The translations under genes and the position numbers were made by a program. A stretch of 19,876 nt of DNA, taken from the NCBI GenBank assembly GCA_040754655.1, contig JBFMCE010000073.1:1-19876 (forward strand). The letters are read 5' to 3'. Origin of the DNA: Bdellovibrionota bacterium (lineage in GTDB: Bacteria > Bdellovibrionota > UBA1018 > UBA923). The notes below the pieces were generated by a model. That model saw nothing but the letters and a program-made list of their open reading frames with translations, had not been told where the DNA came from and made no database searches. Below are positions 215 to 19,571 of this stretch, in pieces (the stretch's first letter is position 1; the number at the start of each line of letters is the position of its first letter).

Positions 215-1072
215 ATGATACACCTCTGCCAGATTTTACAAGTCATTTATGGCCTTTCATATGGGATAATTGTCGCTGGAATCTATTTTTGGATACGACA
301 ATCACTGGGGCATACATTTGTCTTTTATTTCGGAGTATCAAGTTCTTTGATTTTCACCGCTCATTTAATGTTTTTCCCGCGGACCGTTCTTAGCAGCCTG
401 AAAAATATTGCGATAGTTACACGAGCTAGCCTTTTTGGAATAGCACAGATCCTTTTATTGATGGCTCAAGTGCAAACGCAAACTAGCTATATGTTTCTAT
501 CTGCCATTTTTGGGAATCTTATTGCCGCTACTATTGGTAGTATCATGTTAAATGAAAGACTCTCACTTACGACCCTGTTAGGTATCTTTATTGCTGCCTG
601 TGGCATGATATTGAATATGTCCCTTCTTAGCTTAACCTATCTTGCGATCTTAGGTGGTATTGTCCAAGGACTAACCATTATTATCTCCGCAAAAATAGCT
701 AGTGATAAGAAGGCCAAAACTGCTGGTTCCGTCGCTATTGGTTTCTTGTTTTCTGCTGTTATTTCTTTTATTTGGATATCTTTAGAAAGCAGCAGTAATG
801 AATCGTTTCAGAGTCTTAATTGGCAAAAAATCTATTTATTGTCATCTATGCTCATTTTAGCGCAGTATGCCTTCTTTTTTTTATACCGAATCCATTCTAT
901 TCAAAGAGGGTCACTACTATCCTTATCCCGAATTCCTGCCTCAATGACCCTTGAAACAAAGCTCGGAAGTACTTTGCTTGAAAGCACGGAAATACTTGCT
1001 GCAACACTCCTTTTTATTGCAAGTAGTCTCGGTTCATTTAAGACCAAACCCCCAAAAAGTTTAATAGATTGA
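215..1072 (+). CDS. Polytopic membrane protein, probable DMT/EamA-family transporter
   Basis: 285 aa, hydrophobic throughout (about 9-10 TM segments). The segment 'IGSIMLNERLSLTTLLGIFIAACGMIL' resembles the end of an EamA repeat (LxE+l...G...G). The start codon is uncertain because there is no clear RBS. Confidence 0.6.
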   Translation: MIHLCQILQVIYGLSYGIIVAGIYFWIRQSLGHTFVFYFGVSSSLIFTAHLMFFPRTVLSSLKNIAIVTRASLFGIAQILLLMAQVQTQTSYMFLSAIFGNLIAATIGSIMLNERLSLTTLLGIFIAACGMILNMSLLSLTYLAILGGIVQGLTIIISAKIASDKKAKTAGSVAIGFLFSAVISFIWISLESSSNESFQSLNWQKIYLLSSMLILAQYAFFFLYRIHSIQRGSLLSLSRIPASMTLETKLGSTLLESTEILAATLLFIASSLGSFKTKPPKSLID

Positions 1073-1102
1073 AATCCATTTAAATAAACTCATAATATTA
1101 AG

Positions 1103-2524
1103 ATGGCCCGTAAGGAGAACCGAAGTTTAGGCGAACATCTCTATATACTATTTGATCCTCTCCAGCTCGTTCCACCGCGGGTTTGGAAGCGTATCCGACA
1201 AGCGGAGCACCCGGTTCTACTTAAGTTTGCAACAACACACTTCTGCCTTTGGCCGACATTATTTATAATTTTCTATTTTACAAACGACCAACATAAACTG
1301 CCCTTAGAGACTTGGCGTAACTATCGATTTGGTCTAGCGATTGTTCTGCTTTTTTTGGGAGGTCTCACCTACTATTTCAGACATAGGTACCAACTTGTAA
1401 AGGCCTCACTATTTCTAGCCGGATTTATCATATCTGTCGCCGTTAATTGGTCAATGACACTAGGATATCCTATTCAAACTAAATGGCCGATATGGTTGCC
1501 TACATTAATTTGGGCTACGACCGGACGGTCACTAGTTGCTCCAGTATTTTGTCTAGGACTTACATCTTTGCTTTACTTTCCCTTATGGGAAAGCAAAGCA
1601 CCTTCTGCATGGATCAAAAGCGATATTGCAGTTGCAGTTGCTGTGATGATTATTGCTCATATGGTAAGACGCATTTGGCTTGAAGCCAAAGCAAATCAAT
1701 TCATTCTCGACGATACACGAGAAGAAGCTGAGCAGAATCGTATAATTTTTGATAAACTTATCAAAAGTTTTGTAGCACCAGTACTTATTCAGAAGATAGA
1801 AAAAATATGTCAAGAAACTGGAAGTATTGCCGAGGCTTTAGATTCTGTTCTCAAGAGAACAAGAACCAAAGCATCAGTTTTATATTCCGATGTAAGGAAT
1901 TTCAGCTCACGCTCTAACAATTTAGATTTCATAGAGAAAGAGCTTATTCCTTCTGCTGTGTCTATCCTTGATCCAGCAGAGGAAAACCTTGGGGTAGCTA
2001 GGCAAGTAGCAGATGCAGTATTAATTTACTATTCGCTTCCAGACCCAGAAGAGAGCATTCTAAGAGCGTTAAAGGATGCCATTCGATGTTCGCTTTATGA
2101 ACACAAGCGAATATCTGCCCTGGGTCGGACTCAGCCAGAACGCTATTTTACAATAACATTTGGAGATGCCTTAGTGGGTAACATTGCATCAGTGAAACAC
2201 CGAGAACCCACAATCATTGGAAATGTAGCAAATTTGGCTACACGTATCGATGGTTTAACGCGTGAGCTAGCTTTTACGTCGCTCTTTCCCAAGGAGCCGG
2301 TGGTGCTCTTGAGTTCTGAGGCATTCCGAATAGTTGAAACATTCAGTCCGACGTGGGAGTCTTTAGTTATATCTCTTGATGTCTTAAATATTACCTTAAA
2401 ATCGTATCCAAATGAACGTAGCGTCATAATTTTGCCAGCAATTCAAAAAAATATTAGTACTCTAAATGCCCTTTTGCGCTTGAATGATATTAGTGAATTG
2501 AAAGTAGGAAATAGTTCATGGTAA
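1103..2524 (+). CDS. Membrane-anchored class III adenylate/guanylate cyclase domain protein
   Basis: About 5-6 N-terminal TM helices and a short helical linker, then cyclase motifs: SVLYSDVRNFS (first metal Asp), RQVADAV (second Asp), GDALVGNI and TIIGNVANLATRID (catalytic N-x3-R). Confidence 0.88.
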   Translation: MARKENRSLGEHLYILFDPLQLVPPRVWKRIRQAEHPVLLKFATTHFCLWPTLFIIFYFTNDQHKLPLETWRNYRFGLAIVLLFLGGLTYYFRHRYQLVKASLFLAGFIISVAVNWSMTLGYPIQTKWPIWLPTLIWATTGRSLVAPVFCLGLTSLLYFPLWESKAPSAWIKSDIAVAVAVMIIAHMVRRIWLEAKANQFILDDTREEAEQNRIIFDKLIKSFVAPVLIQKIEKICQETGSIAEALDSVLKRTRTKASVLYSDVRNFSSRSNNLDFIEKELIPSAVSILDPAEENLGVARQVADAVLIYYSLPDPEESILRALKDAIRCSLYEHKRISALGRTQPERYFTITFGDALVGNIASVKHREPTIIGNVANLATRIDGLTRELAFTSLFPKEPVVLLSSEAFRIVETFSPTWESLVISLDVLNITLKSYPNERSVIILPAIQKNISTLNALLRLNDISELKVGNSSW

Positions 2525-3942
2525 AAAAACTTGACGGTATTCTACGGCAGGAACAGGAGCTTATTCATGGCCCTTTCATGGCTGAACCTGTTCGGGATGG
2601 TGATGCAGTTTCCGGTAGCATTGATACTGGTACTGGATGGAAGCCAGTAAGGATTTGGCGATATTCCCCTTTTGGGGTCGACATTCTAAACCCTGACACC
2701 GTCAATCTTGCTCAAGGCCAGAAGTTATCTATCATGGTTCGGTTAGCTGATTACGAAGAAATATATGATGGTTTAACCGTAAGTAGACTTTTTGAAGACG
2801 GAAATAGAAAACTCGCTGGTGTAAGAACATTTTTACCAAAAAACAGCCCACAAACTGCAGAAGACCGACGCGCTCATAAGCGTTGGACATGTCCAGAAAG
2901 CTACCTACCTACCGGAACTGCACCAAATCCAGTTCGCTACAACGACCACATAATTTTCCGTGTGGAAAATATATCTGCCGGTGGTTTGTTATTACTTACG
3001 AGTCTCAGAAATAAATTGGTGGGACGAGGGCAAAGATTAGTGGCAACACTAACTTTACCACTTGTTGGTATAGTTCGAACGACTCTGCAAATAAAGCATA
3101 TCGATACAAAGGCGATAGGGGACAAAGAGTATTTAGTACTAGGAACACAATTTATTCACCCTGACGAGCTTTTACGTGCCTGCCTTGCAGAATATTTATT
3201 GAATTTTGCTGAAGGAATTACGGTTCGTTCCCTTCGCGACGACAGTTTTCCAGTAAAGAGGTTCGCTCGCTGGTTAGATTTTACATATGTCAAAACCGAA
3301 AGTGAATATAACGAGGTGCTTCATTTACGATACAATGCTTATAAAAATGCAAATAAATTAGCACCTAATAAACAAGTGATAGATATGGCAGATGAGTTTG
3401 ATTCTAGAGCTCGTATTTTAGTAGTCAAACACCAAGGTCGTGTAGTTGGTTCGGTTCGTACCATGTTTCATGCTGAGACCGATCAAACTGACCACGGCAG
3501 ATATATAGCTTACCCTAGTAATTTTCCAAAACTAACTGAAACAATTGAAGCATCTAGGATGTGCACAGATCCTGAGTTTCAGAAAACAGGAATAGTATTC
3601 GAGCTCCTGGCACACATGGTTCTCACTACGATCAAAAGTGGTCGTAGGTATCTTTACTCCGGAGCTTCGGGTAGTCTTCTTGAATTTTACAAAAAATGTG
3701 GGTGGCGCTTAACAGGCTTAACTTATAACAATGACGCGCTTGGTGGCATCCAACATGAATTAATGCTTATGGACACATACGAAGTTGCATTGGGAAAAGG
3801 AATTGGATTTCGATTCTGGAATCGCCTTTATGCTAATTTAATTGACCATATGATCGAACAGGAATTAATTTTACCTACACCATATGAACGACTCAGGTTG
3901 AATCTATTTAAAACTTTGGGTTCGGCTTGGAGAGATGAATAG
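2518..3942 (+). CDS. PilZ-domain + FeeM-type N-acyl amino acid synthase (LuxI/GNAT-like fold) fusion
   Basis: PilZ motifs RRAHKR (RxxxR) and NISAGG (D/NxSxxG), preceded by a degenerate PilZ-like barrel (RYSPFG). The C-terminal motifs LRYNAY, DEFD, VVGSVR, EASRMC and FYKKCGW are typical of FeeM/LuxI-like acyltransferases. Overlaps the cyclase gene by 7 nt. Confidence 0.85.
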   Translation: MVKKLDGILRQEQELIHGPFMAEPVRDGDAVSGSIDTGTGWKPVRIWRYSPFGVDILNPDTVNLAQGQKLSIMVRLADYEEIYDGLTVSRLFEDGNRKLAGVRTFLPKNSPQTAEDRRAHKRWTCPESYLPTGTAPNPVRYNDHIIFRVENISAGGLLLLTSLRNKLVGRGQRLVATLTLPLVGIVRTTLQIKHIDTKAIGDKEYLVLGTQFIHPDELLRACLAEYLLNFAEGITVRSLRDDSFPVKRFARWLDFTYVKTESEYNEVLHLRYNAYKNANKLAPNKQVIDMADEFDSRARILVVKHQGRVVGSVRTMFHAETDQTDHGRYIAYPSNFPKLTETIEASRMCTDPEFQKTGIVFELLAHMVLTTIKSGRRYLYSGASGSLLEFYKKCGWRLTGLTYNNDALGGIQHELMLMDTYEVALGKGIGFRFWNRLYANLIDHMIEQELILPTPYERLRLNLFKTLGSAWRDE

Positions 3943-3962: not shown

Positions 3963-4670
3963 TCAGCTCTCTATACATAGCGAGTATTTTGGCAAATTCT
4001 TAGCAATAATTGATAGAGGATCTATCATCTCAATAAAGTCTTGTTTTCCTAGGTCCTGAGATCTTAACGTTGAAATCAAGTGCATTTCCGTACAACCTAA
4101 AAGCCAAGTATCAGTTTTATAGTTTTTACACATGGCTTTTAATTCGTCATAAGCTTCAACGGGACTACGGCCACCCTTCAACTCATAAATAATTTCATGG
4201 ATACGGCTCTGATCTTGTTCTGTGGGAAAGGTAACCAACTTTTCTACATCTTTCCAGCATAGTTCGTTATTAAAGATATTCATTTCTCTACTTCCACTGG
4301 TACAGAGTAGTAACGAGGTTTTTCCAAGGTGCTTTAGCGCCTTAAGCCCTACTTCTGGTAAAGAAATGAGGCTACCTCTAAGATCGGAGTCTAGGCGATC
4401 GAACACTGCATGAAGCGTAAAGCAACATACTATAAACTTTGTTGCTCCTAGTTTCTTTAGGTTCTCTAAGCTCGATACAGTTCTTTTGAGTAATTCCTCA
4501 TATTGTCCATTTCTCAACAACTGCGTGCGATCTGGGAAACTTGAGTCGGAAATTAATACAACACTTGGAAAGTCCTGATCGAGCCTGCCTTTGGATTCTT
4601 TATAAATAGTATTTAGAAATCGTGTCGATGATAAGGGTCCTAGTCCCCCTAGTATGCCCAAAATTCCCAT
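3963..4670 (-). CDS. Aspartate/glutamate racemase family protein (RacX/YgeA-like, PLP-independent)
   Basis: N-terminal GILGGLGP, PDRT, and both catalytic Cys motifs (CCFTLH, LGCTEMH). Start moved to the ATG at 4670, which has a GAGGA RBS upstream and matches the family N-terminus. Confidence 0.9.
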   Translation of the reverse strand: MGILGILGGLGPLSSTRFLNTIYKESKGRLDQDFPSVVLISDSSFPDRTQLLRNGQYEELLKRTVSSLENLKKLGATKFIVCCFTLHAVFDRLDSDLRGSLISLPEVGLKALKHLGKTSLLLCTSGSREMNIFNNELCWKDVEKLVTFPTEQDQSRIHEIIYELKGGRSPVEAYDELKAMCKNYKTDTWLLGCTEMHLISTLRSQDLGKQDFIEMIDPLSIIAKNLPKYSLCIES

Positions 4671-4842
4671 ATTATGATCCTCATCTCTTGCATAAAAGAA
4701 TTCTATCACAATGATCGTTTGGTATAGTAAATTAATCAGTACCTAGGACATATGAGGTTACAGTCAAGAACCTCAACTCACGATCAAGTGGTAACTCTCT
4801 CTGCTGGTTGGCACCATCAACGCAAGTCCAACCCACTTCAAA

Positions 4843-5688
4843 TTAATAGACCACAGATATCAAAATACGAACGCACATTCCGCCACTCGGAATGGGCTCA
4901 AACCACAAATCTCCACCATGATCTTGTACAATCCTCCACACCTCGCCTAAGCCTATCCCATGCCCAGAAATCTTCGTTGCTTTGCCAAAATCTTTATCGT
5001 TTAAACGGCGAAGCAGGAGTTCGTCGATACCTTTTCCATTGTCTCTGACCTCTATAGATACTTTATTCCCACTTTGCAGTATTGAAACCTCTATGATTGG
5101 GTCAGGACTTTCGTGAACTGCATTATTGGCATTATTGAGAATATTGTCTAACGCCCTTGAGAATTCGGTAATATTCAAGCGGCAAGCAATTCCTTCGTCG
5201 TCTAAGTTCCTATTTTCGAGAGCAATATTGGGCTTGCCCCCATTCGTTAAAACATAGTTTTTACTGGTGATAATATTTTTAATTACGGAAACTAATGGGA
5301 CGAGCTCGAGTTGTTGAATGCTTGACTGGGGATTAGGCGCTGCTGTCGATTGTACTTGATCAGATCGATATGTTTGTAAGAGCTTTGATGCGATTGCGTC
5401 AATACCGCTATTGCACCAGATAGGAGCTGGCGTTCGTCTTGTTCTAAGTTTTTTGTAAGTTTAGAAAGAGTTTTTAGCATAGCAAGCGGTGAACGAAGAT
5501 CATGGGCAATTCCTTGAGCGACAGCGCCAACACGTAAAGTTGCTTCGATCGTTCGCGCTCAATCCATCTTTAATTTCTAGGTCACCAAAAGCAAACCAAT
5601 GTATCGCCGTAGTTATAAAGATAATTGCACCAGCAATAAGAACAATTGGTCCGAACTTTTTTATGTGATCTAGCCTTGCATTCTTCAA
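4843..5688 (-). pseudogene. Frameshifted single-TM sensor histidine kinase (about 280 aa if repaired)
   Basis: TTG start 1 nt after the upstream kinase stop and a TM segment (IVLIAGAIIFITTAIHWFAFG). The H-box VAQGIAHDLRSPLAML lies in a second frame at ~5475-5525. A further frame switch near 5405 leads into an uninterrupted frame containing the HATPase N/G1/G2 boxes (NILNNA, DNGKGI, GHGIGLG). Indels could be sequencing errors. Confidence 0.8.
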
Positions 5689-5689
5689 A

Positions 5690-7426
5690 CTATTCCGCTC
5701 CTCCGACTGAGCAAGGTTTACCCACAATCGGCACCGCATGTACGAGTGCTTTAGGAATCATTCGAATTCCTAAAGTAACACACTCCTGCTGAACTTGGTC
5801 ATCGTCATAACGATTGGTCACTAAAACTGCCCGGTCCGATAGGTTGTATTTCTTAATGAGATCGAGACCAGTAACGTCATCAAAAGAGAACTCAAGATCA
5901 ACTAAGTGAAGTGTATTTTTCAATGAATACAAACGGTTTGAATGCTCTAAATCAAACTCCTGGGGTGACCGTAACGAAATCAAATTGATGTTTGAGAATT
6001 CTTTAAGTCTTATCCTCCATGCAGCGTGAACCGAAGAATCATCGTCTACTGTTATGATGTGCAAGGGATCATTAGAATCTGTCTCATTAGAAGAAATATT
6101 CAATTCAGATAAAAACCAATCTGGTTTTTCAGCCTGAGGGAGAACGATTTCAACTGTGGTGCCCATGCCTTCAGTAGATTTTATTTTCAGAGTGCCGCCA
6201 CAGTCTTCGATATATTTGCGGGCATGGTAAAGTCCTAGCCCAGTACCGCTGGGTTTTCCGAAGCTTGCGCCTCGATGGCCGATCTTATCGAGCAAGACTT
6301 TGGGAATTCCAATGCCCGTGTCGACTACGGCGAGTTTCACACTCTGTTGCAGGTTGCTTGAAACTTGAATTTCGATCGTACCCTTTTCCTCGGGCAGCGC
6401 TTCAACACCATTATTGATAAGGTTTGAAATCATTCTAAGAAATTCGGTCTTGTTTCCTTGAATGAAAAGTTCATAAGGAGACTTGCCAATTTCGCTGACG
6501 ACGGAAAGTTCTACTGACTTTGAATATTGAGTTCTCTTTTCAGAAAGAATCGATTCAAGGGTGGTAAGCACAGAAAAACTCTGCTTCGTTGCTATTAAAG
6601 GTTTCTGGTCTAAGCGATCTATTTCCGGCAATGCTTTAGCGGGTTTTGCCTGGATCTGATTCTTAGCTTCGGCACTTTTTTTGATTAGGTCGTCTGCAAT
6701 TGTCCGAATGCGATCAATGGCTGTGCGAATCAAGAGTCGTGGTTCTTCTGAGAGCGTCGCGATGTTTTTTGTAACGATTTCTAAGGCAGCAAGTGGTGAG
6801 CGAATGTCATGTGCTACCTGAGCTGCCATCTGGCCGATGGCGGCGTCCCTGCTTTTTATTTCGACTTCAGTCAGAAGTGGAATAACAATTTTGCGCTCGA
6901 TGAGCTGTCCTAACCACTGAATGAAGAGAAAGGTGACCGTCACCGAAATTATGAGTGATAGGAATAAAGACTCTGAGAAGAGACTTCGCCAAGCAGACTG
7001 TATTCTAATCGAGTAAGACAATGAACCTATTTTCTTTTTTCCCAAAAGAAGCTCAGTAGCTCCGGTGCGTTGTGCCTGAAGATCAGATTGCGAACAGGTA
7101 GAAACAGTCTTAGAAGTTTCTGAGGCAGCCACATGCAAGCAAATCGATGAGTGAGGAAACAAATTTTCAATACGATTTTTAATCTGTACGAGTCTGAGCT
7201 GAACGGCATCCCATTGCTCTAGAAAGACTTCATTGGCAAATAGTCCGTATTCGCTTTGGATTTTTGCAGAAAGGTCGGGCTCAATTTGTTTTAAGTGTCG
7301 GTCTGTTCGCGAATACAAACTATAAGAGTAGACTAAAAATAAACTCAATACGAAGACCCCAATAGGAAACCAAATCAAACGTTTAATTCTATTTAAAGAG
7401 TATTCTCTCAAGTTGGTCTTATTCAC
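5690..7426 (-). CDS. Hybrid sensor histidine kinase (2 TM, periplasmic domain, HisKA, HATPase, C-terminal receiver)
   Basis: H-box AHDIRSPL, N-box NLINNGVEA, G1 DTGIGI and G2 GTGLGL. Receiver motifs: VDDD, LVD (phospho-Asp), VT and IPK. GTG start overlaps the ATP-grasp gene by 8 nt. Confidence 0.95.
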   Translation of the reverse strand: MNKTNLREYSLNRIKRLIWFPIGVFVLSLFLVYSYSLYSRTDRHLKQIEPDLSAKIQSEYGLFANEVFLEQWDAVQLRLVQIKNRIENLFPHSSICLHVAASETSKTVSTCSQSDLQAQRTGATELLLGKKKIGSLSYSIRIQSAWRSLFSESLFLSLIISVTVTFLFIQWLGQLIERKIVIPLLTEVEIKSRDAAIGQMAAQVAHDIRSPLAALEIVTKNIATLSEEPRLLIRTAIDRIRTIADDLIKKSAEAKNQIQAKPAKALPEIDRLDQKPLIATKQSFSVLTTLESILSEKRTQYSKSVELSVVSEIGKSPYELFIQGNKTEFLRMISNLINNGVEALPEEKGTIEIQVSSNLQQSVKLAVVDTGIGIPKVLLDKIGHRGASFGKPSGTGLGLYHARKYIEDCGGTLKIKSTEGMGTTVEIVLPQAEKPDWFLSELNISSNETDSNDPLHIITVDDDSSVHAAWRIRLKEFSNINLISLRSPQEFDLEHSNRLYSLKNTLHLVDLEFSFDDVTGLDLIKKYNLSDRAVLVTNRYDDDQVQQECVTLGIRMIPKALVHAVPIVGKPCSVGGAE

Positions 7427-8690
7427 TTTGAAAGCCCTCTGGTTTGCAGAGTTCTACGCCCAACAACTCTTCGAGTTTTAAGATGACCTTGTCTCGCGTA
7501 TGGAAAAGCTCTTCGACATTTTCTGAAAAGAGCAGGATTCGGCCGATGTATCCATGGTTAGATGCAACTGCTTTGACTTGAGATCCAGGTTCCACAAATA
7601 AAGTGAAATCTAAAGAACAATCTTTGAATTCTTTATCCAACTCAAAAGAAAGGTCTTTTTTCAATGTAGAGTCACCTGCAGCCCCTAAGAAAAACGACAT
7701 TCCAAATATAGCGTGTTTAGCGAGACGAGGCATATTACGTTCGCAATAAATGTCGAAAACAAGGTCATACACATTTGTCTCGTGAGTTTTAGAGTAAAGA
7801 GTTGGTAGGCTTCCTCCCATGAGCCTAGGATTGATCTCAATCAATCTGAAACCATTTTGCGTAAGAATGACTTCGATATGATAGATCCCAAGATCAATTT
7901 GCAGTGTCTTAAGCAAATCTAGAACAAAGAATTCACAGTCATCGCGTATGTTTTTTTCAAGCAAAAACGGCATCAACGTACCAAGCTCGATGACTTCTGA
8001 GTTTTGAGCTCGAAACCTGCGACCGACGGCTAGTATCGCTACCGCGTTTTTCAACTGAGCAACTTCAATCGAGAACATAGGCCCTTGATGATACTCTTCA
8101 ACCACGAAATCAGAAGACACGACCCCGCACAACTCACTCGCAATATTGGTTTTCTGGATCTTGCTTAGATATGCATTGAGATCTTCTTCTGATCTGAGGA
8201 TAGCGGCATTCAAGCTAGCTGCACCTCGATTGGGTTTTACAACGCAAGGAAAGCCGAATTTTAAGACCGTATTCTTTAGAGACGAAACATCTTGAGCCCT
8301 GGCATTGCGGATTCTGTTTTTTGCCTTGAAAAGCTCTTTAGACTGAAATTTGTTTCTTGCCATTGATACTGCACTGGCTCGGGTGAATGGAATATTCAAG
8401 ATCTCAGCAGTTTGGCTTGCGAATTCAACACTATACTCGCTTAAAGCAATAATTGCATTGATCTGTTTCTTTGAATGGATATCAATAACTGCTCTCTCGA
8501 ACTCTGAGTATTGAGCTATGTCGGCGACCACAATATTGTCTGAATACTTTGCTAACTCGGGATCAAGCTTTGAGTTTTGGAATAGTGTATCTGGAAGCCC
8601 TCGTAGGATCGAAACTTCATAGTTTCGTGCTCTAGCATCTTTCAATAGCTGAAGTGGAGTACTGAAACTCTCTATAACAAGCACGTGCAT
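7419..8690 (-). CDS. ATP-grasp ligase, L-amino acid ligase-like (peptide-bond forming)
   Basis: ARNK, FPCVVKPNRGAAS, FVVEEYHQGPMFSIE and YHIEVILTQNGFRLIEINPRLMGG (E-x-N-x-R). The 423-aa length with a C-terminal extension is as in BacD/RizA-like ligases. Confidence 0.9.
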   Translation of the reverse strand: MHVLVIESFSTPLQLLKDARARNYEVSILRGLPDTLFQNSKLDPELAKYSDNIVVADIAQYSEFERAVIDIHSKKQINAIIALSEYSVEFASQTAEILNIPFTRASAVSMARNKFQSKELFKAKNRIRNARAQDVSSLKNTVLKFGFPCVVKPNRGAASLNAAILRSEEDLNAYLSKIQKTNIASELCGVVSSDFVVEEYHQGPMFSIEVAQLKNAVAILAVGRRFRAQNSEVIELGTLMPFLLEKNIRDDCEFFVLDLLKTLQIDLGIYHIEVILTQNGFRLIEINPRLMGGSLPTLYSKTHETNVYDLVFDIYCERNMPRLAKHAIFGMSFFLGAAGDSTLKKDLSFELDKEFKDCSLDFTLFVEPGSQVKAVASNHGYIGRILLFSENVEELFHTRDKVILKLEELLGVELCKPEGFQSE

Positions 8691-9898
8691 TAGATCGCCT
8701 CGCCATTCTTAAACGAGACTCTCCTCATTTCAGAGAAACGGAGCAAAACCCAAATGAATAAAAAGAAAGCCAACGCCAGATAGATGAATCTGGTGATTCC
8801 TGTTTTATCAATGATAACGCTGATGATAAAAATGCCCAAGGCCAAGCTCGAGACTAATAACGAATTCATGATTGAGAAAATATCTGCTGCAGAGTTCTTA
8901 GGAGCCCTTGTGACGATTTGATTCTGGATATAGGTGAAGGCCACTTCGAAGGAAAAAATAAACGCAAAGTACAACGGAAATGCCACGATTGGATTCTTGA
9001 CAAGAATCAGAATCATCATCAAAAAAGACGTGAGTAAAAGGAGGTTGGCGTTTTTACCTGGATTAGCGTTTCTGGCGCTAACGTATTTGGCGACGAAACT
9101 GGCCCCTGAAATGATGGCGATTGTTGAAATAAATTGCAACAAAGATACAGAAAAACTAGGCATTCCTAAGAATTCCAAGGCATATGCTGTTCGAGCTACA
9201 TTATGAAATCCTTGGAAGAACATCACGGTCAATATCAAGCAGATTAGAGGTGAAAGAATATTATTTTGGCGAACAATCGTAAAAATTTGTCGAAAAGATT
9301 TCGATGCAGCAGGGCTCAAACTCTGAGATTTAATGGTCGTCAGTCTAAGTGCAAGTAACGCTGTCACGAAAAAGAGCGATGATGACACAAGTGAAGTTCC
9401 TTGAGCCCCGATAGTGGTCGAAAGAACGCCCCCGAGTATTGCTCCACAACCGATGCCAACGAAATGAGCCGTGTTCAGCAAGGCATTTGCCTTTTCTAGC
9501 AGGTCTGATGGCATGTTGTGTTTGAGTGTTGTGATCCTGCATGTTTTTTCAATGGCTTCTAAATAACCTCTCAACATGAAAATAACGTAAAACAGAGAGG
9601 GTAGCTGAGTTACGAATGGAAGAAGCAATACGAGTGACATCTGGGTGAGTGCTGTTACCAATAGGATCGATCGAGCCGAAATTCCTGAGACTATTTTTGC
9701 AGTAAGTTTTACGAGAAGGACGGGAAGAATCCAGCTCATACCAAAAATTGATGCTGCAGAAAGGTTTGAACCAGTTCGTGAGAAAACCTCAGCAGAGTAT
9801 GAAAGCATGACAAAATACCCTGACGCTGTTGAAAGCATAAGGTTTGCCCAAAGAACCAAATATTGGTGGTCTTCAAAGAGCAGTCGTCCTTTTTTCAT
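8690..9898 (-). CDS. MFS transporter (probable exporter)
   Basis: 402 aa with about 12 hydrophobic segments. 'LEKANALLNTAHFVGIGCGAILGGVL' resembles the TM5 region of DHA-type exporters. TAATG stop/start overlap with the ATP-grasp gene. Confidence 0.88.
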   Translation of the reverse strand: MKKGRLLFEDHQYLVLWANLMLSTASGYFVMLSYSAEVFSRTGSNLSAASIFGMSWILPVLLVKLTAKIVSGISARSILLVTALTQMSLVLLLPFVTQLPSLFYVIFMLRGYLEAIEKTCRITTLKHNMPSDLLEKANALLNTAHFVGIGCGAILGGVLSTTIGAQGTSLVSSSLFFVTALLALRLTTIKSQSLSPAASKSFRQIFTIVRQNNILSPLICLILTVMFFQGFHNVARTAYALEFLGMPSFSVSLLQFISTIAIISGASFVAKYVSARNANPGKNANLLLLTSFLMMILILVKNPIVAFPLYFAFIFSFEVAFTYIQNQIVTRAPKNSAADIFSIMNSLLVSSLALGIFIISVIIDKTGITRFIYLALAFFLFIWVLLRFSEMRRVSFKNGEAI

Positions 9899-9904
9899 CG
9901 TATC

Positions 9905-11029
9905 TCATTGCACCGTATAAAATGGAGTTTGGCCCTTTTTTGTAAATTTATAGATAGGAAGCGGACGATAGGGTTCACCAAACTCTTCACTTTTCCATTC
10001 ACCAAGGATTCCATGAAATTTGATTTTTCTCGCGGCAGCAACAAGGTTCGCCCCAGATTTCGCTGAAATCTTCGTCATTTCAGCAGCCAGAAGAAAGGCA
10101 TCGTAAGCCGCAGCAGTTCGAATATTCTCAGGCATCCCTTTACAATCAGTCTTAAGCAATCTTTTGAAGCGATGATCATGATGTCCTACAGATTTTACGT
10201 CCCAAAGACCGTTGAAAAACAATTCAATTCCTGGTTTGTAATGTTCATTGAGCAGCTCGGTCGCATTGAACATGCCGGCATGAGTTACGATCTTGACCGA
10301 GATTTTTCTTTCTGAGAGATTTGCGTACAGATTCGTCAGGTCAACGCTGTAAACGGGGGCATAGATCACTTCTGGATTTTCTTTAAGAATCTTATCAACG
10401 ACTGTTTTATAATCTGTGGTGCCATCGATGAGATCGATATAGGCGAGCGTCGCCTTAGATTTTAATCTTTCAAGGTTTGGCAGAATCGCTGATCGGTAGT
10501 TGGTGGAGTAAGGCGAGGAAAGGTTTGAAACTACCACGATTTTTTTAGGTTCTAACACTTGATGGATGAACTTCGCGATCTTTTTTGAGTACGACTCAGA
10601 ACTTCCGATAATTCGAAATGTATTGCGGTACTTCCTTGTGATTTCTTCATGCGATGCGACTGGAACGATTTGTGGAAGGTTTGCTTTTTCAAAGACAGGC
10701 GCGGTAGTCAACGCTTCTTGCGAAGTGCGCGGTCCGATGACGATGTCATATCCTTGGCTTACAATTTGTTCAGAGGCGCTGAGAAGATCAGGGATGCTGT
10801 TATTGTATTCAAAAGAGGTGAGTGTGACTTTATGGCCTTGTTTTATCGATTGTTTCGTCATTGCCTCGAGAACGCAAAGGTATTCTGAGGCTGTGTTTTT
10901 GCTCCACAGAGCCGCAATTCTTATAGGCCGATTTGTACTGGCTTTGGCGTTCATGGCCGCGAATGAAACCACAGCTAACAACAAGGCTATTGAATTGAAG
11001 AGAAGTCTCATCGCCATTTTAAGAACCAT
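9905..11029 (-). CDS. LIVBP/LivJ-type (type 1) periplasmic amino acid/amide-binding protein
   Basis: Signal peptide followed by PIRIAAL, VIGPRTSQ, PQIVPVAS, TFRI, AAAYDA and FHGILG, all characteristic of branched-chain amino acid ABC substrate-binding proteins. Confidence 0.9.
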   Translation of the reverse strand: MVLKMAMRLLFNSIALLLAVVSFAAMNAKASTNRPIRIAALWSKNTASEYLCVLEAMTKQSIKQGHKVTLTSFEYNNSIPDLLSASEQIVSQGYDIVIGPRTSQEALTTAPVFEKANLPQIVPVASHEEITRKYRNTFRIIGSSESYSKKIAKFIHQVLEPKKIVVVSNLSSPYSTNYRSAILPNLERLKSKATLAYIDLIDGTTDYKTVVDKILKENPEVIYAPVYSVDLTNLYANLSERKISVKIVTHAGMFNATELLNEHYKPGIELFFNGLWDVKSVGHHDHRFKRLLKTDCKGMPENIRTAAAYDAFLLAAEMTKISAKSGANLVAAARKIKFHGILGEWKSEEFGEPYRPLPIYKFTKKGQTPFYTVQ

Positions 11030-12047
11030 TGAGGTGAGAGTCTAATTCGTCCCGGGTTAAAGGCCTAATGTAGCGCAAGACATCCATGTTGGGACGACCC
11101 AAGGCTCCCTGGTCTTTATACACAGGAAACAGGACTTTCCCATCAAATGGGGCACGATAGGAACTGCCGTCAATTTCTCCAAGAACCGTGTCTTTCTTAA
11201 TGGATTTCATATTCGAAAGACCCGGAACAAGATTAAATTCCCCGGTTTGGGTTCGCTGGGTTTCATGGAAAGTATAGACCTGCTCGGCATATTGCGGCGG
11301 CAGGGACGGCCATACCTTCCCTCGCGCAAGGTTCTCAAGAGCTGCGATTGCCTTTATGATGGCAGATAATCCTAGTTCGATTTGTCCGGCTTGGATTCCT
11401 TTTTCGCCGAGCTCTAGCCCAAATCCAATTCCGCCGTGCAAAAGATGGTAATTCACCGTTGTCATTTGACCTTGGGCAAAGCTCTTCTCAAAGTAGGTCA
11501 CAACCGCTGTTCTTGGCAGGCAGGTTCTCATGAGCCTAAAAGATCTAGGGTCGAACTTCGAAATAAAAAAGGGTTCTGCTGAAGGACCTTGGGTTTGATG
11601 AAGGTCGATCAATGCGAACGTCTGTCGGTAAATTTCCTCAAGACCCAATGCCAGTTTCTCTTCAGGATTCGTGTGACGCTCAAGTCCAAAGGATCGGTTT
11701 AAGTCTGATTCAAGAAACCGCTTACCAGCTCGTAGGGCTTCAAGGTTTCCGAGAGTAAGGCAGATGTTGATCTTTGGTTCTAAAAGGCGTTGTTCGAGCA
11801 AGCGAATTAGTTCTGAAACAACGAAAACTCCACCGACTTCATTTCCATGAGTGAGGCATTGTATAGTGAGGTCAATCTTACGCCTGTGATCGGTCGGGCG
11901 GCGTTCTTGAGGATTTAGTAGAAAGGCTCGATCCGTTATAGATTCAAGTGAGAGACTTCCAATATTGTTTTTGGCAAGTCTTAGCAGTAAACCATCAACC
12001 TCAGCTATGGATTCTTCAATATAGCTTGGGTTTGGCATAAATATCAC
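11019..12047 (-). CDS. Succinylglutamate desuccinylase/aspartoacylase-family (M14-like Zn) amidohydrolase
   Basis: THGNE (Zn H/E), RFLESDLNRSF, IDLHQT, GLELG (catalytic E) and a C-terminal barrel segment (APFDGKVLFP). GTGA overlap with the methyltransferase; alternative ATG at 12038. Confidence 0.92.
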   Translation of the reverse strand: MIFMPNPSYIEESIAEVDGLLLRLAKNNIGSLSLESITDRAFLLNPQERRPTDHRRKIDLTIQCLTHGNEVGGVFVVSELIRLLEQRLLEPKINICLTLGNLEALRAGKRFLESDLNRSFGLERHTNPEEKLALGLEEIYRQTFALIDLHQTQGPSAEPFFISKFDPRSFRLMRTCLPRTAVVTYFEKSFAQGQMTTVNYHLLHGGIGFGLELGEKGIQAGQIELGLSAIIKAIAALENLARGKVWPSLPPQYAEQVYTFHETQRTQTGEFNLVPGLSNMKSIKKDTVLGEIDGSSYRAPFDGKVLFPVYKDQGALGRPNMDVLRYIRPLTRDELDSHLNGS

Positions 12048-12781
12048 TTCTTTCGCAGCAAAAGCATTCCATCAGAGAGAGTGAGTATCATCGCTTCAAC
12101 TCTGGGGTCACGAGTAACAAAGTCATTCAGCTCCCTGAGAGCCCAGACTCGATCACTGGTGTCTTCTTTGTCGAGGATGTGCCCACGCCAGAGGACATTG
12201 TCGATCAGAAGGATTCCACCGGTTTCTAGGAGATCAACCGTGGCTTTATAATAGTTAAAGGCGTTCTTTTTATCTGCGTCGATAAAGATGAGATTAAACT
12301 TAGGGGCGCCATGCAAGATTTCTTCGGAAAGGGGCTTCAGCAGATCAAGTGCCTCTCCGATTCGAAGATCGATCTTTTCGTGAAGACCAACCTGCTCAAA
12401 ATATGTTTTGGCTTTCTGCGACCATTCAGGATTGTGGTCGAGACTAATGATCGTTCCATCGTTGGGCAGCGCTGTGGCAATAGCGAGTGTGCTGTAGCCA
12501 AGGTAGCAGCCAATTTCTAAAGCTTTCTTGGTTCCTGATATTTTGACCAAAAGATTCAGCAGCGCCGCCTGATCTCGCTCGGTCATCATGTAGTTCATTT
12601 CTACATTTACGGATTCATCGCGAATTCGTTTGAGTACGGGGTGAGGGCTGAAGCACCTCTCATGCACGTATTGCTCTAGCTCGGGCGTGAAGATGGGGAT
12701 CTTGGTCACCCTTCCGTCGCGTAAGTTCAGTCTTTGTTCGTGTTCCGGGATGGCTGGCAAACTGCTGTCTGTGGATTGCAT
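12044..12781 (-). CDS. Class I SAM-dependent, cation-dependent O-methyltransferase (caffeoyl-CoA OMT-like)
   Basis: ALEIGCYLGYS (SAM motif I), FIDADK, IDNVLWRG and SDGM. AGGTG RBS upstream. Confidence 0.93.
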   Translation of the reverse strand: MQSTDSSLPAIPEHEQRLNLRDGRVTKIPIFTPELEQYVHERCFSPHPVLKRIRDESVNVEMNYMMTERDQAALLNLLVKISGTKKALEIGCYLGYSTLAIATALPNDGTIISLDHNPEWSQKAKTYFEQVGLHEKIDLRIGEALDLLKPLSEEILHGAPKFNLIFIDADKKNAFNYYKATVDLLETGGILLIDNVLWRGHILDKEDTSDRVWALRELNDFVTRDPRVEAMILTLSDGMLLLRKK

Positions 12782-12804
12782 TGTTTTTCACCTAAAAATT
12801 GTGT

Positions 12805-12837
12805 CATTCCCGTATCAAATAATAGTTATTTAGTCAA
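12805..12837 (-). promoter_or_regulatory. Possible promoter/operator for the methyltransferase operon
   Basis: Minus-strand TTGACT (12837-12832) is immediately followed by the palindrome AAATAA-CTA-TTATTT (12831-12817). There is no convincing -10 hexamer. Confidence 0.35.
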
Positions 12838-12882
12838 CATTTGGGGGGACGGGTCCGAGGTTCTTACAATAAGGCTTTGCTT

Positions 12883-13218
12883 CTACCCCTCCCACGGGGG
12901 TTCTTTGCCAACGACCTTCTTGATCCATGGCAATTCAGGCAGTTCTTCAAGAGACCGTCCGGTGGCGAGATAGAGGTTCTGATAGCCGTCCTTGAATAGC
13001 TGTTGAGCGATGTCTTCTCCACGCACGCCATTCCCGAGGCCAGAGTCTATATAGACCGGCGTAGATTTTGGGATGTGTGCGAGATTCTCACGAAGTTTTT
13101 CCACAGACTCAAAAACCGTCAGATTTTTACCAAGTCTTTTGGCGACCATCTTCCAAGTCATATGAACAAGAAAGTCATCATCCAAAAGTACGGCATCGAT
13201 CTTGTTGCTTTCAGTCAT
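12883..13218 (-). CDS. Stand-alone receiver (REC) domain protein
   Basis: AVLLDDD, VYIDS (phospho-Asp), LATG (conserved T) and GKEPPW (K-x-P). 111 aa with no output domain. Confidence 0.85.
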   Translation of the reverse strand: MTESNKIDAVLLDDDFLVHMTWKMVAKRLGKNLTVFESVEKLRENLAHIPKSTPVYIDSGLGNGVRGEDIAQQLFKDGYQNLYLATGRSLEELPELPWIKKVVGKEPPWEG

Positions 13219-13401: not shown

Positions 13402-13974
13402 ATGGCACACGTTGTGTTTTCGGGGCTATTGGTACTCTGTCCCCTAGAAGCATGTCAGCGTAAGAAAGGTTGGCAAAGTAAGGGTGCAAGTCTGGCGCTA
13501 CGTTGCATGGAGTTGATTACTGTTTTGGCATACGTACAAGCAGGTTTTTCAAAGTTGATTGTTTCAGGTTTGGACTGGGCGTCAAATGGAACGACACTAC
13601 AGATTGCGCTTATCCGACAAGGGTTAGAAACCGGGTTGTTTTTTTCGAAGTTTACTAACCTTTTGATCACTCTGTCTTGGGCTTCTCTATTGCTTGAACT
13701 TTCAAAGGGAGCGGTATGCATTGATACAGAGGGAAAAATATTTCACGGAGCGACCGCTATTGCTAGGGCTCTTGAAGAGCTTTCAATGCCCTGGTGGCCT
13801 ATTGGTAGGCTGATGCAACTTCCGATATTGCGTTCGTTTTTTCGAAGGCTCTATAATTGTTTTTCAAGAGTTCGTCATTTTGTTTTAAGGGAACCTATAC
13901 GAGCATGGTGTCCGCTAAACTTTGAACCCTTTTCTGATCAGTTCATCTTTCCCAAAGAGGAGACCAGTACTTGA
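13402..13974 (+). pseudogene. Probable chimeric remnant: HTTM-like membrane fragment fused to a DCC1/DUF393-like C-terminal fragment
   Basis: YVQAGFSKLIVSGLDW...LLLEL resembles HTTM-like membrane proteins. IDTEGKIFHGATAI...WW...LYNCFSRVRH resembles the second half of DCC1-like thiol-disulfide oxidoreductases, but their N-terminal DxxCxxC is absent. Confidence 0.55.
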
Positions 13975-16874: not shown

Positions 16875-17933
16875 ATGGAAAAAATCGTGATTCACGGGCC
16901 TGGTGGTTATGAGCGTCTTAAACTTGAAGAACATCCGACGCCGAATCCCAAACCTGGAGAGGTCTTGATACGCACCGAGGCAAGCGGGGTGAACTATGCC
17001 GATGTGGCTGTGAGATGGGGTTTGTATGAATCAGCGAAGAAGTACGTGGGATGGCCCATTACACCTGGATTTGAATATGCGGGCACAGTTGAGCGCATAG
17101 GGGATGGGGTGATCCATCTGAAAACAGGCGATCGCGTGTTTGGCATCACTCGGTTCGGTGCTTATTCGACTCATGTGGTTGTTCCCGGTCACCAGGTTTT
17201 TCCGTTACCCACGAAATTATCTTATGAAGAAGGCGCAGGATTTCCGGCGGTTTACATGACCGCTTATCATGCGCTGTTTCAAAACGTGATCGTTCGAAAA
17301 GGGATGACGCTGCTTGTTCATTCAGCGGCCGGAGGAGTTGGTACGGCTCTCTTGCAATTGGGGAAGATCGCAGGATGCAAGGTGGTGGGAGTGGTTGGGT
17401 CTTCGCATAAAGTCGAGACGGCTTCCAAATTTGGCGCTGATCATGTGATTGATAAATCAAAGGAAGATCTTTGGAAACGCGCTGAGCAAATTGCTCCGCA
17501 GGGTTATGACGTGATTCTGGATGCAAACGGGGTCTCTACTTTGAAGCAGAGTTACAAACATCTCGCTCCCACCGGAAAACTCATTTCCTATGGCTTTCAC
17601 TCAATGTTGCCCAAGAGTGGCGGCAGAGTGAACTATCTTGCTTTAGCCTGGAACTACTTGAGAACCCCAAGATTCAATCCGATCCAGATGACCAATGAGA
17701 ATCGAAGCTTGATCACATTTAACGTCTCTTTTCTATTCGATCGCACTGATTTACTGGAAGAAGGGATGCGGGACCTGATGCGTTGGACCGCCGAAGGAAA
17801 GCTGCAAGCGCCGAAAGTCACTTGTTATGCGCTAGATGATGTTGCAAAGGCCCATCAAGACATTGAATCAGGATCAACCACGGGCAAGTTGATTTTAAGC
17901 ACTCAAAAGAGAGCTAGGGCGCTTGTTCACTAG
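16875..17933 (+). CDS. Medium-chain dehydrogenase/reductase, VAT-1-like NADPH:quinone oxidoreductase
   Basis: GVNYAD, PITPGFEYAG, LVHSAAGGVG (NADPH binding), DVILDANG and STTGKLIL; no catalytic Zn cysteines. ATG at 16875 follows a GAGGAG RBS. Confidence 0.92.
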   Translation: MEKIVIHGPGGYERLKLEEHPTPNPKPGEVLIRTEASGVNYADVAVRWGLYESAKKYVGWPITPGFEYAGTVERIGDGVIHLKTGDRVFGITRFGAYSTHVVVPGHQVFPLPTKLSYEEGAGFPAVYMTAYHALFQNVIVRKGMTLLVHSAAGGVGTALLQLGKIAGCKVVGVVGSSHKVETASKFGADHVIDKSKEDLWKRAEQIAPQGYDVILDANGVSTLKQSYKHLAPTGKLISYGFHSMLPKSGGRVNYLALAWNYLRTPRFNPIQMTNENRSLITFNVSFLFDRTDLLEEGMRDLMRWTAEGKLQAPKVTCYALDDVAKAHQDIESGSTTGKLILSTQKRARALVH

Positions 17934-19407
17934 AGAGCGCGTTTGAGACGCCCGCCTCAAGCTCGCGTTCGGAGAGACCGTCTCGAAAAATACGATAATC
18001 CACGACTCGGTCAGTGAGGGCGGATCTCAAGAGAGTGATGTCCCTCGCAGCTGCCGACGCCCCGATGTGATTGCGCAGGTCCATGAAAGAAATTCTTTCT
18101 AAGGCTTGATGCGTGGCTTCTTCGTTGTTTTCAAGACCTGTGAAAGAGTTGAATTCTTTTTCTATCACTCGATTGATGAGTTCAGCGTTTCTCTCTTCGA
18201 ATTCGCGTTGCTCCAATGCCCACTCGCGTTGTTTCTTTGGCCATTTCGCCAGCTGCTCGCGGCGCGCGACTCCATTGTTGAGGGCTCTTTCATGGGCTGC
18301 CAAAGCTTCCGCAGAAAGGTCTTCAGTAGGCAGGATTTCAGCCTTAGACGGCGCTTCGAATATATCTCGCAAGGTGCTGAGGGGCAAGGTGCGCAAGTAA
18401 CGGCGCATTTTGATCTCGATCATCACGTGGGCCGCTATCGCTTCGATCAGATTAAAGGGGTTTTTGAAAGTGGCTGCACCGCCTGTGCGTGCCTTTTGTC
18501 CTTCTTTAAATTCGATCCACGTCTTCTCAAAAATGCGCCAGTTGCGAGAATTTGGAACATGCCCGTTAAGATAAACGTCAGCGGCGCTCACTACGGTGAG
18601 GTGTTTCATCTCATCACGAATCACATTCATGGCGAATTCATGAGATGGCCCTTCAGTATGGGTTGCGATGATATAATAAGCAGAAGATGCGCCCCACTCA
18701 GTACCTGCGCGATGATTGAGGTGGCGTTGGGCACCATCTAAGGTGGTCACGGTGATCGTAGGGACCGCAGCATTCGAGCGATCAGGTTTTTTCCCAGTGT
18801 ATTTCTCGATCATGCGAGCCCATGCCATGGCGTGGCGGTGTTCTTCAGAGCACCATGCGGAACCACAAGAATCTTGTTTTTCAAGCTTTTCAGCGTATTT
18901 CGTTTGAGGAACGTTGCGTCCCATGAAACGTGCGAGATTAGGAAGAAAAGAGGTAGGACCGTCAGGGCCTTCGACAATGTCAAACGCTTTACCGCTTTGT
19001 TCCTGATAACGATAAATAGGATCTTCAATCTCCATCGCCGTTTGCAGAATTTTTACCATGTCTTCTACCGACATACCGACGACTTGATCAGGATGAATGT
19101 CGCGAATGGGGACCTTATTCCAAGGGCGCATCTGATAGTCGGTCACGTCGGGGCGTTGATGGAATCCCCAAAACGCCCTCAGGTTCCGATTGAGATTGGT
19201 ATGTTGAAACTCTTCTTCGATGAGTCGATGAATTCGAGCCAACCGAAAGGGCAGATCGACGATGCGCTTTGCGTTATAAGTAAGAAGTGCCGCGCATGCT
19301 TTTGCTTTCGAAGCGAATGATTGAGAGGGGGTTGCGTACGTCAAAGTTGAGGAAAATAAAATTAGAAAAAAAATCCCTAAACCCAGGCACCCATTAAGCC
19401 GTTTCAT
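17914..19407 (-). CDS. Predicted exported ferritin-like diiron-carboxylate protein (acyl-ACP desaturase-like)
   Basis: N-terminal signal peptide (MKRLNG...LTYA). The ligand pattern EIEDP, WCSEEHRH, TEWGA and DEMKH matches E...ExxH...E...ExxH. Start is either ATG 19407 or GTG 19419. Confidence 0.7.
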   Translation of the reverse strand: MKRLNGCLGLGIFFLILFSSTLTYATPSQSFASKAKACAALLTYNAKRIVDLPFRLARIHRLIEEEFQHTNLNRNLRAFWGFHQRPDVTDYQMRPWNKVPIRDIHPDQVVGMSVEDMVKILQTAMEIEDPIYRYQEQSGKAFDIVEGPDGPTSFLPNLARFMGRNVPQTKYAEKLEKQDSCGSAWCSEEHRHAMAWARMIEKYTGKKPDRSNAAVPTITVTTLDGAQRHLNHRAGTEWGASSAYYIIATHTEGPSHEFAMNVIRDEMKHLTVVSAADVYLNGHVPNSRNWRIFEKTWIEFKEGQKARTGGAATFKNPFNLIEAIAAHVMIEIKMRRYLRTLPLSTLRDIFEAPSKAEILPTEDLSAEALAAHERALNNGVARREQLAKWPKKQREWALEQREFEERNAELINRVIEKEFNSFTGLENNEEATHQALERISFMDLRNHIGASAAARDITLLRSALTDRVVDYRIFRDGLSERELEAGVSNALSSEQAP

Positions 19408-19571
19408 GATGCGATGCACTATTATGGAAGTATGAAGATGTCAAACAGGAGACAGGGAAACTGCGGGTTCCAGCGGTTCATTAAATTAGATAAATTGAGC
19501 TTCTAGCAAAATGACACCCGGAAAAGTGGACTTTTTTGATTTGGTAATCTATTTCGAACCCCGCGGAGCTT

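Follow-up and report, generated by a model that had tools for sequence, protein, structure and literature searches.

A candidate make-export-sense cassette with a binding protein and hybrid sensor kinase in a Bdellovibrionota bacterium

The gene run and its components

A stretch of 19,876 nucleotides (nt) from a Bdellovibrionota bacterium (assembly GCA_040754655.1, 3.78 Mb, 90% complete; contig JBFMCE010000073.1, here C73), which we call the window and to which all coordinates refer, carries on its minus strand a run of genes that may form a make-export-sense cassette. The run comprises a stand-alone receiver, an O-methyltransferase (OMT), an AstE-like hydrolase, a substrate-binding protein (SBP) of the LIVBP type, a transporter of the major facilitator superfamily (MFS), an ATP-grasp ligase and a hybrid sensor kinase (HK1); all are open and match their families (Table 1). 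An earlier reading made from the letters of this DNA (the sequence-only reading) had described a co-directional run with overlaps of 4, 11, 1 and 8 nt and gaps of 6 and 1 nt, and the junctions that we measured agree with it: receiver/OMT +101, OMT/AstE -4, AstE/SBP -11, SBP/MFS +6, MFS/ligase -1, ligase/HK1 -8 and HK1/kinase 2 +1 nt. Because start codon choice sets both the -4 and the -11 values, these overlaps become gaps of a few nt with the database start calls (AstE of 339 amino acids (aa) and SBP of 370 aa). The seven core genes have tight junctions and keep their catalytic residues, which are present in the ligase, the hydrolase, HK1 and both receivers. The stretch is a low-GC island, with a GC content of 0.430; the genome averages 0.502, and its 5-kb windows have their 1st percentile at 0.442. 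GC falls along the run from 0.48 to 0.39, and the core genes lie at 0.41-0.46. Promoter and terminator scans of the window were at chance (15 vs 16.6 and 8 vs 8.9, respectively), as was a sigma-54 consensus motif (1 match in the window vs 1.04 expected). A Pfam search of the window proteins found no ABC permease or ATPase gene. Some homologue labels (Silvanigrellales, Bacteriovoracaceae) point to Bdellovibrionota.

Table 1. Features of the window discussed in the text
Feature	Position	Strand	Characteristics
Stand-alone receiver, 111 aa	12883..13218	-	D12-D14, D58, T86, K105 present; no output domain
Cation-dependent (CCoAOMT-class) O-methyltransferase, cytoplasmic	12044..12781	-	PF01596 E 1e-60; nearest solved 3R3H, 3TR6, 3CBG
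AstE/aspartoacylase-like zinc amidohydrolase	11019..12047	-	PF24827 E 8e-19; nearest solved succinylglutamate desuccinylase 1YW6
Periplasmic LIVBP-type SBP	9905..11029	-	PF13458 E 5e-19; N-terminal hydrophobic segment
MFS exporter	8690..9898	-	PF07690; subfamily tied to this ligase family
L-amino-acid-ligase-type ATP-grasp amide ligase	7419..8690	-	PF13535, PF18130
Hybrid sensor kinase HK1	5690..7426	-	two transmembrane helices, single PDC/Cache-like periplasmic domain, HisKA, HATPase, C-terminal receiver
Kinase 2	4843..5688	-	one transmembrane helix, HisKA, HATPase; GGAGGAG ribosome site, TTG start
McyF-like Asp/Glu racemase	3963..4709	-	both catalytic cysteines; nearest solved McyF 5WXX E 4e-34
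PilZ + FeeM-like GNAT N-acyltransferase (outside finding)	2518..3942	+	PF21926, PF07238; convergent on racemase

By its ATPgrasp_N and ATP-grasp_4 domains and its intact ATP- and metal-binding residues, the synthase gene is predicted to be an ATP-grasp ligase of the L-amino-acid ligase (LAL) type. PF13535 scored above its cut-off and PF18130 reached 25 bits vs a cut-off of 27; K114, K152, E198, E273, E285, N287 and R289 are invariant in 5 homologues, and the nearest solved structures are 4DIM, 3VOT (an LAL), BacD and 4WD3. The ligase falls well under the NCBIfam equivalog cut-offs for BacD (23 of 850 bits) and DdaF (44.2 of 840). The best match of the MFS protein is P0066, a natural MFS-ATP-grasp fusion of 819 aa; its second-best match and the ligase P0003 both list a contig of 76,135 nt.

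The hydrolase keeps HGNE, DLNR, DLH and the glutamate of GLELG and has no signal peptide. It thus has the H-x-x-E and H zinc ligands of AstE/AspA (M14-like) enzymes, along with their carboxylate site (N-R) and catalytic Glu, while scoring under the astE and aspartoacylase equivalog cut-offs of NCBIfam. The SBP has the fold, the export signal and the carboxylate-binding Ser and Thr/Ser of the LIVBP (Peripla_BP_6) family; its structure model (pLDDT 88.8) matched the fold of LivK 3TD9 best, and the genome's transporter LivK sits elsewhere (C95), beside its own permeases. HK1 has a conserved C96-C111 pair, H206 in HisKA and, in its receiver, D460-D462, D510, T537 and K559. The model of its sensor domain (pLDDT 83) best matched the folds of 4ONX (Z 9.8, root-mean-square deviation (rmsd) 2.4, 90 aligned), 4U64 (Z 9.4) and CitA 2J80 (Z 8.6); Foldseek gave no match for this domain at E 0.001. 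The stand-alone receiver had no Pfam match and resembles the C-terminal receivers of related kinases, for example that of the L063 kinase (E 6e-31).

One gene of the run did not hold up as first described. Kinase 2, which the sequence-only reading had listed as part of the run, has two opposite frameshifts around its H-box in this assembly: the frame is lost once before and regained once after it, the H-box sequence AHDLRSP is read in the shifted frame, and two stops interrupt frame 1 at this place. An intact open reading frame (ORF) for kinase 2 is therefore ruled out in this assembly.

The binding protein, its kinase and recurrence of the core

When 401 genomes were searched with the SBP, a distinct group of 17 strong matches emerged (L049-L065), and every one of them is encoded directly before a kinase. 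The sensor region of HK1 (residues 1-195) matched each of the 17 kinases encoded after an SBP of the window's clade, and 0 of 80 chosen by their catalytic domain (65 in score order, skipping matches with little upstream DNA, and 15 of HK1-like length). Hence the sensor domain goes with the SBP even in kinases whose catalytic part is different. The predicted complex of the SBP with the HK1 sensor scored 0.57 vs 0.00 for the best control (runs of 0.67, 0.57 and 0.00), which weakly favors binding; the corresponding score band holds 18 of 157 solved complexes together with both of the 2 false passes among 215 mismatches. A partnership of SBP and kinase, as in the sequence-only reading, is in keeping with the co-inheritance of sensor domain and SBP, and weakly with the complex prediction. 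Sigma-54 activator/SBP/kinase trios occur within L049-L065, and 6 of them were confirmed beside conjugation genes (tra/trb); on such conjugative elements, signal control of DNA transfer is possible. The window's own genome holds no obvious cognate sigma-54 activator, with several paralogues at 33-40% identity.

The binding pocket hints at the ligand. S103, S126 and Y174 are retained in the SBP as counterparts of the Ser, Ser/Thr and Tyr found around the LivJ amino-acid site. In contrast, A251 replaces the acid of the GxD/E motif, which is Asp in 30 of 36 aligned SBPs and which we take to bind the free alpha-amino group. This acid is missing in all three SBPs linked to AstE and this ligase, which fall on two branches of the SBP tree, vs 3 of 33 others. 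The loss of the pocket acid fits a ligand with an amide-blocked amino group, as in a product of the ligase and a substrate of AstE; we infer this from three cases.

Judged by gene content, the core recurs, if rarely. In L012, a metagenome-assembled genome of the Deltaproteobacteria, AstE, methyltransferase, MFS, ligase, SBP and kinase genes stand in one run, the kinase being cut by the contig end. These are the same six gene types as in the window, arranged in another order and with 23-35% identity where they align, and L012 is the one locus with the full set among 13 genome loci of this ligase subfamily. Its methyltransferase belongs to another family (PF08241; E 0.009 against the window OMT) and is not orthologous, and the OMT would accordingly be classed as a variable tailoring gene. 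For the best homologues of the ligase (41%), the SBP (49%) and AstE (47%) alike, the longest contig listed is one of 40,409 nt, with the same sources; we took these as presumably one contig. The MFS gene of that contig was not among the best 10 of 333 matches, where relatives of >50% identity are hidden behind the window protein. In L238 and L239, an MFS gene, a more distant ligase, a short-chain dehydrogenase/reductase (SDR), an SBP and a kinase occur together with a sigma-54 activator beside each, and L238 adjoins conjugation genes. Synthase, exporter and receptor genes are thus linked in more than one genome (L012, L238 and L239), and the sequence-only reading, which had made itself answerable to whether the ligase and MFS homologues keep company with the SBP and kinase elsewhere, came through this comparison.

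Close relatives of the ligase itself are scarce. Among 400 other genomes of the phylum there was no close orthologue (best other match E 1e-37 vs 9e-197 for the window), and a metagenome scan gave at least 3 relatives of full-length type (L066-L068), none with SBP or kinase matches among the matches listed. Two further layouts were seen in this comparison. At L063:7592-13391 and L239:2370-9199, a heme-oxygenase-like oxidase and an SDR precede the SBP and kinase, the two oxidases being 28% identical. At L013:7609-13401 (Cognatiyoonia sp.), luxI, a gene like serine hydroxymethyltransferase (SHMT), a small ORF, the ATP-grasp gene, the MFS gene and luxR follow one another, and Phyllobacterium L016 has the same SHMT-ligase-MFS block without lux genes.

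The wider kinase family and neighboring genes

Kinases of the HK1 type occur in at least 111 of the 401 genomes (197 matches, of which the best 150 were listed), and by gene neighborhood the operon is one member of a widespread modular family, which the sequence-only reading had missed. A coupled SBP gene was found at 42 of the 80 related kinases (37 by Pfam and 5 by a profile of our own; four more SBP-like genes recognized by eye were left out), a share that the 15 length-picked loci may inflate, while some of the 38 loci without an SBP end at contig edges. These SBPs were 19 LIVBP, an amino-acid type, 19 SBP_bac_5, a peptide-binding type, 2 NMT1 and 2 others. Among 195 coupled genes (154 upstream and 41 downstream), no ABC permease or ATPase was found. 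In the window's own genome, as a control, 4 of 62 HATPase matches had a same-strand SBP within 6 kb upstream in a partial search that covered three SBP families; these were the two of the window, that of a paralogous cassette on C16, and a fourth with an SBP that comes with permeases of its own. The C16 cassette (L157, C16:7890-13558, minus strand) is low in GC and consists of an FAD monooxygenase, LysE, a GNAT, a LIVBP SBP and a hybrid kinase 33% identical to HK1; it converges on an ATP-grasp and EamA pair, and this pair is divergent from a cluster of methylaspartate mutase, desaturase, Asd and aspartokinase.

An enzyme was identified by Pfam at 26 of the 42 SBP loci, and at 30 of 42 when motifs read by eye were included. 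[quoted passage not shown] On the kinase tree (FastTree, with many weak nodes; 2 kinases without a recognized H-box were omitted), the RiPP-type loci are scattered over 10 places. In contrast, the enzymes at the LIVBP loci are of amino-acid or small-molecule kinds, and an exporter of the LysE, MFS or amino-acid permease type often accompanies them, and both NMT1 loci have a methyltransferase-like gene and a DMT-type exporter. As far as family assignments go, enzyme chemistry sorts with receptor class.

Within this family, mini-clusters that look RiPP-like, with an oligopeptide-type SBP and an HK1-family kinase, were observed at L179, L184, L195, L198, L204, L217, L227, L232, L233, L234 and L236; they carry YcaO, radical SAM, HExxH-motif or DUF4135 proteins, and some have an ORF of 90-130 aa that may encode a precursor. 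HK1-family kinases without an SBP (L166, L170, L172, L173, L191, L216, L220 and L231) are coupled to a methyltransferase, a thioesterase, FabH with a phosphopantetheinyl transferase, or a hydrolase with a hexapeptide acyltransferase, and resemble synthase-kinase pairs of the Phc or diffusible signal factor type.

To the left of the run, the racemase lies 133 nt past kinase 2 and scored 107.5 bits in TIGR00035 vs a cut-off of 93.1; its GC content of 0.387 is that of the left-hand block. A search of 300 other genomes gave a single close homologue, and this one overlaps a FeeM-like GNAT gene, which is 38% identical over 195 aa to the PilZ-FeeM gene of the window, and no racemase homologue was found in the 80 kinase loci. 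With this one homologue as its basis, the racemase probably belongs with the neighboring FeeM-like acyltransferase and not with the ligase operon. Since the racemase tracks a different neighbor, a product containing a D-amino acid, as the sequence-only reading had envisaged, loses support, and we rejected this candidate. That reading had also named two genes as flanking the run: the receiver keeps its place on the minus strand, 101 nt upstream of the OMT, and the racemase, which goes with the FeeM-like gene, drops out. The left-hand block itself (215..3942, plus strand, GC 0.39) consists of overlapping genes for a DMT-like transporter, a membrane class III cyclase-like protein and the PilZ-FeeM-like GNAT. 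Of 201 genomes, 12 have the last of these, in most cases behind a cyclase-like gene; the pair of cyclase-like and PilZ-GNAT genes recurs in the phylum and in L237 lies about 2 kb from another SBP-kinase cassette.

At the right border of the island, an ORF on the plus strand (13402..13974) matches nothing in Pfam but the second half of a DCC1-like domain and has the look of a remnant left by a deletion. A 501-aa protein encoded on the minus strand (17914..19419) appears to be exported and has no Pfam or NCBIfam match; its two E-x-x-H motifs are suggestive of a diiron ferritin-like fold.

A possible self-signal circuit, its rivals and known systems

We hold it at about even that the run is a horizontally acquired make-export-sense cassette working as a LuxPQ-like self-signal circuit that may respond to cell density, with an N-acyl amino acid or a dipeptide as its ligand. 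In such a circuit, the ATP-grasp enzyme would couple an amino acid, through its amino group, to a carboxylic acid, yielding an N-acyl amino acid or dipeptide, and the OMT, which is not conserved between loci, might optionally methylate a hydroxyl on the product. The MFS protein, whose linkage to the ligase is observed, would export this product, and the SBP, with the fold and residues described above, would bind it in the periplasm through its free carboxylate. The loaded SBP could then dock on the PDC domain of HK1, a contact that is weakly predicted, and shift the balance between kinase and phosphatase. Either receiver, that of HK1 or the lone one, would relay phosphate to an output outside the window; by analogy with related loci, this is most likely a sigma-54 activator. 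The cytoplasmic AstE-like enzyme may cleave the amide, either to reset the signal or to trim a precursor. Kinase 2 would be a decayed accessory, and the racemase would stand outside the circuit. From the circuit drawn in the sequence-only reading, the linkage of ligase, MFS, SBP and kinase was retained; its D-amino-acid part was given up, its second kinase is broken, and its methyltransferase is not orthologous across loci.

Several observations weigh against a self-signal circuit. Twelve of the 13 ligase-subfamily loci are without such an SBP-kinase pair, and in other phyla the ligase/MFS subfamily occurs without SBP or kinase; the relatives of AstE at 28-37% identity stand alone in 10 of 10 loci. 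At L013, luxI and luxR enclose the ligase and MFS genes, the arrangement of a regulated product. The two loci with ligase and SDR retain the pocket Asp. The window is without a DNA-binding regulator, and kinase 2 is broken in this assembly. For the predicted complex, contact agreement between runs was at least 0% (one of the three runs gave 0.00) at a partner pLDDT of at least 73, and its score band is more often wrong than right when prior support is lacking. In addition, 15 of the 17 closest SBP-kinase pairs (12 confirmed by Pfam and 3 by near-identical sequence) have a sigma-54 regulator and no synthase; such pairs may do no more than listen, or this clade may respond to a compound from outside. 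Finally, 16 of the 42 SBP loci are without a Pfam enzyme, and some of the enzymes counted may be chance neighbors.

An unlikely but credible alternative is a small natural-product cluster, for an antimetabolite dipeptide or similar, in which the SBP and kinase would monitor the product or a precursor just to tune the cluster's own synthesis and export; the molecule would act on other organisms and carry no cell-density signal, and AstE would free or detoxify the active part. The nearest characterized ligases (BacD and the LALs) indeed make bioactive dipeptides, the genes lie in a low-GC island, and Proteobacteria and Actinobacteria have sensor-free clusters in which the ligase/MFS subfamily accompanies SHMT-like, AurF, 2OG-Fe, PALP and methyltransferase genes, in one case flanked by luxI and luxR. 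However, many family loci hold a single simple enzyme (a GNAT, an esterase, a nucleoside phosphorylase or a methyltransferase) by the SBP and kinase, and therefore a signal synthase fits them better than an antibiotic pathway; moreover, synthase-free copies reside on conjugative elements. That the SBP and kinase sense an outside cue, such as an amino acid derivative from prey or the environment, with the enzymes as a regulated response (modification, detoxification or efflux) or as inserted cargo, we also regard as unlikely. The 15 synthase-free pairs suit this alternative, and SBP-stimulated kinases are mostly nutrient sensors, going by the accessible part of one source (PMC9602780); furthermore, MFS and ligase genes split the SBP from its kinase in the window, while the two are adjacent in all 17 relatives. 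Against an outside cue, enzyme chemistry is matched by SBP class across the family, the pocket acid is lost in all three AstE and ligase loci in two separate SBP lineages, and the ligase consumes ATP, as befits synthesis more than catabolism. That the genes are a chance mosaic without a common pathway, in an island that is decaying, seems to us very improbable: the broken kinase 2, the truncated DCC1-like remnant, the GC drift from 0.48 to 0.39 and a racemase that belongs elsewhere would all agree with it, but the gene combination recurs in L012 (and, if the listings indeed come from one contig, on that of 40,409 nt), and the seven core genes retain their catalytic residues and tight junctions.

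The self-signal circuit, if it exists, would share features with several known systems. Downstream of LuxPQ, the LuxU/LuxO relay carries the signal. The likeness to LuxPQ consists in a periplasmic binding protein beside a PDC-type hybrid kinase with a C-terminal receiver, and in sigma-54 activators at related loci; HK1 has the membrane kinase architecture, the PDC-type periplasmic domain, the H-box and the receiver Asp of this type, and LuxQ is among the fold matches of its sensor (2HJ9_C, Z 7.4, rmsd 2.9, 91 aligned). In Vibrio, LuxQ recognizes autoinducer-2 through periplasmic LuxP, according to the available extract of the source (PMC8534201). Unlike LuxPQ, the window has an LIVBP-type SBP, a single and not a tandem PDC, synthase, exporter and hydrolase genes in the operon, and amide-ligase chemistry. 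No LuxS, LuxP-family or histidine phosphotransfer (HPt) match was found among the window proteins (Pfam/NCBIfam), a search that did not extend to the remainder of the genome. In the PhcB/PhcS operon, the signal-making enzyme is encoded with the sensor kinase. PhcS of Ralstonia senses a fatty-acid methyl ester, as stated in the portions available of two papers (PMC10576176, PMC7694676). The window is similar in having a synthase beside a kinase, and methyltransferase and kinase pairs occur in the HK1 family too (L170, L172 and L191), whereas the Phc system is without SBP, ligase and MFS; the window OMT is of the CCoAOMT class (PF01596). On these analogies the operon would resemble LuxPQ in its working and PhcB/PhcS in its layout.

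BacD, LAL BL00235 and DdaF have their roles in the pathways of dipeptide clusters. The bacilysin (BacD), LAL BL00235 and dapdiamide (DdaF) clusters share with the window a LAL-type ATP-grasp enzyme and an MFS exporter, and these clusters are not known to have an SBP and a hybrid kinase. The accessible part of one paper puts the SBP-stimulated sensor kinases characterized by 2022 at about 10 (PMC9602780). Among these, the same extract describes BctC/BctE, which resembles the window in an SBP adjoining a membrane kinase and in indirect sensing, but which is a transporter-associated nutrient sensor (PMC9602780), whereas the window has no ABC permease and has biosynthetic genes in the operon. A phylogenomic paper on the phylum reports RiPP and other clusters; in its main text, as far as available, the terms 'quorum' and 'histidine kinase' do not appear, and its Table S4 may list some (PMC8067016). 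Our literature search, with most subscription papers outside its coverage, found no description of the operon, the family or such self-made Bdellovibrionota signals, in accordance with the sequence-only reading, which did not recognize the combination as a described system.

A broader reading, which we put forward tentatively and at something short of even, is that the phylum has a large, undescribed library of self-signaling cassettes, in each of which one hybrid-kinase scaffold is combined with an interchangeable synthase (amide ligase, YcaO, radical SAM, HExxH, GNAT, diiron oxidase, phosphorylase or methyltransferase) and an SBP receptor that matches it chemically. Conjugative synthase-free copies would eavesdrop, and the window would be the N-acyl-amino-acid or dipeptide version. 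Under the rival readings too, these loci offer a new genome-mining handle for small molecules. If the library reading is true, there would be dozens of synthase-receptor pairs, and the binding protein could be used to fish for the ligand directly. Amino-acid amides and RiPP-like peptides, acting via SBP-kinase pairs, would join the short list of Gram-negative autoinducer chemistries. The source bacterium is probably of the predatory type, and predator-to-predator signaling and signal control of conjugative transfer would become testable.

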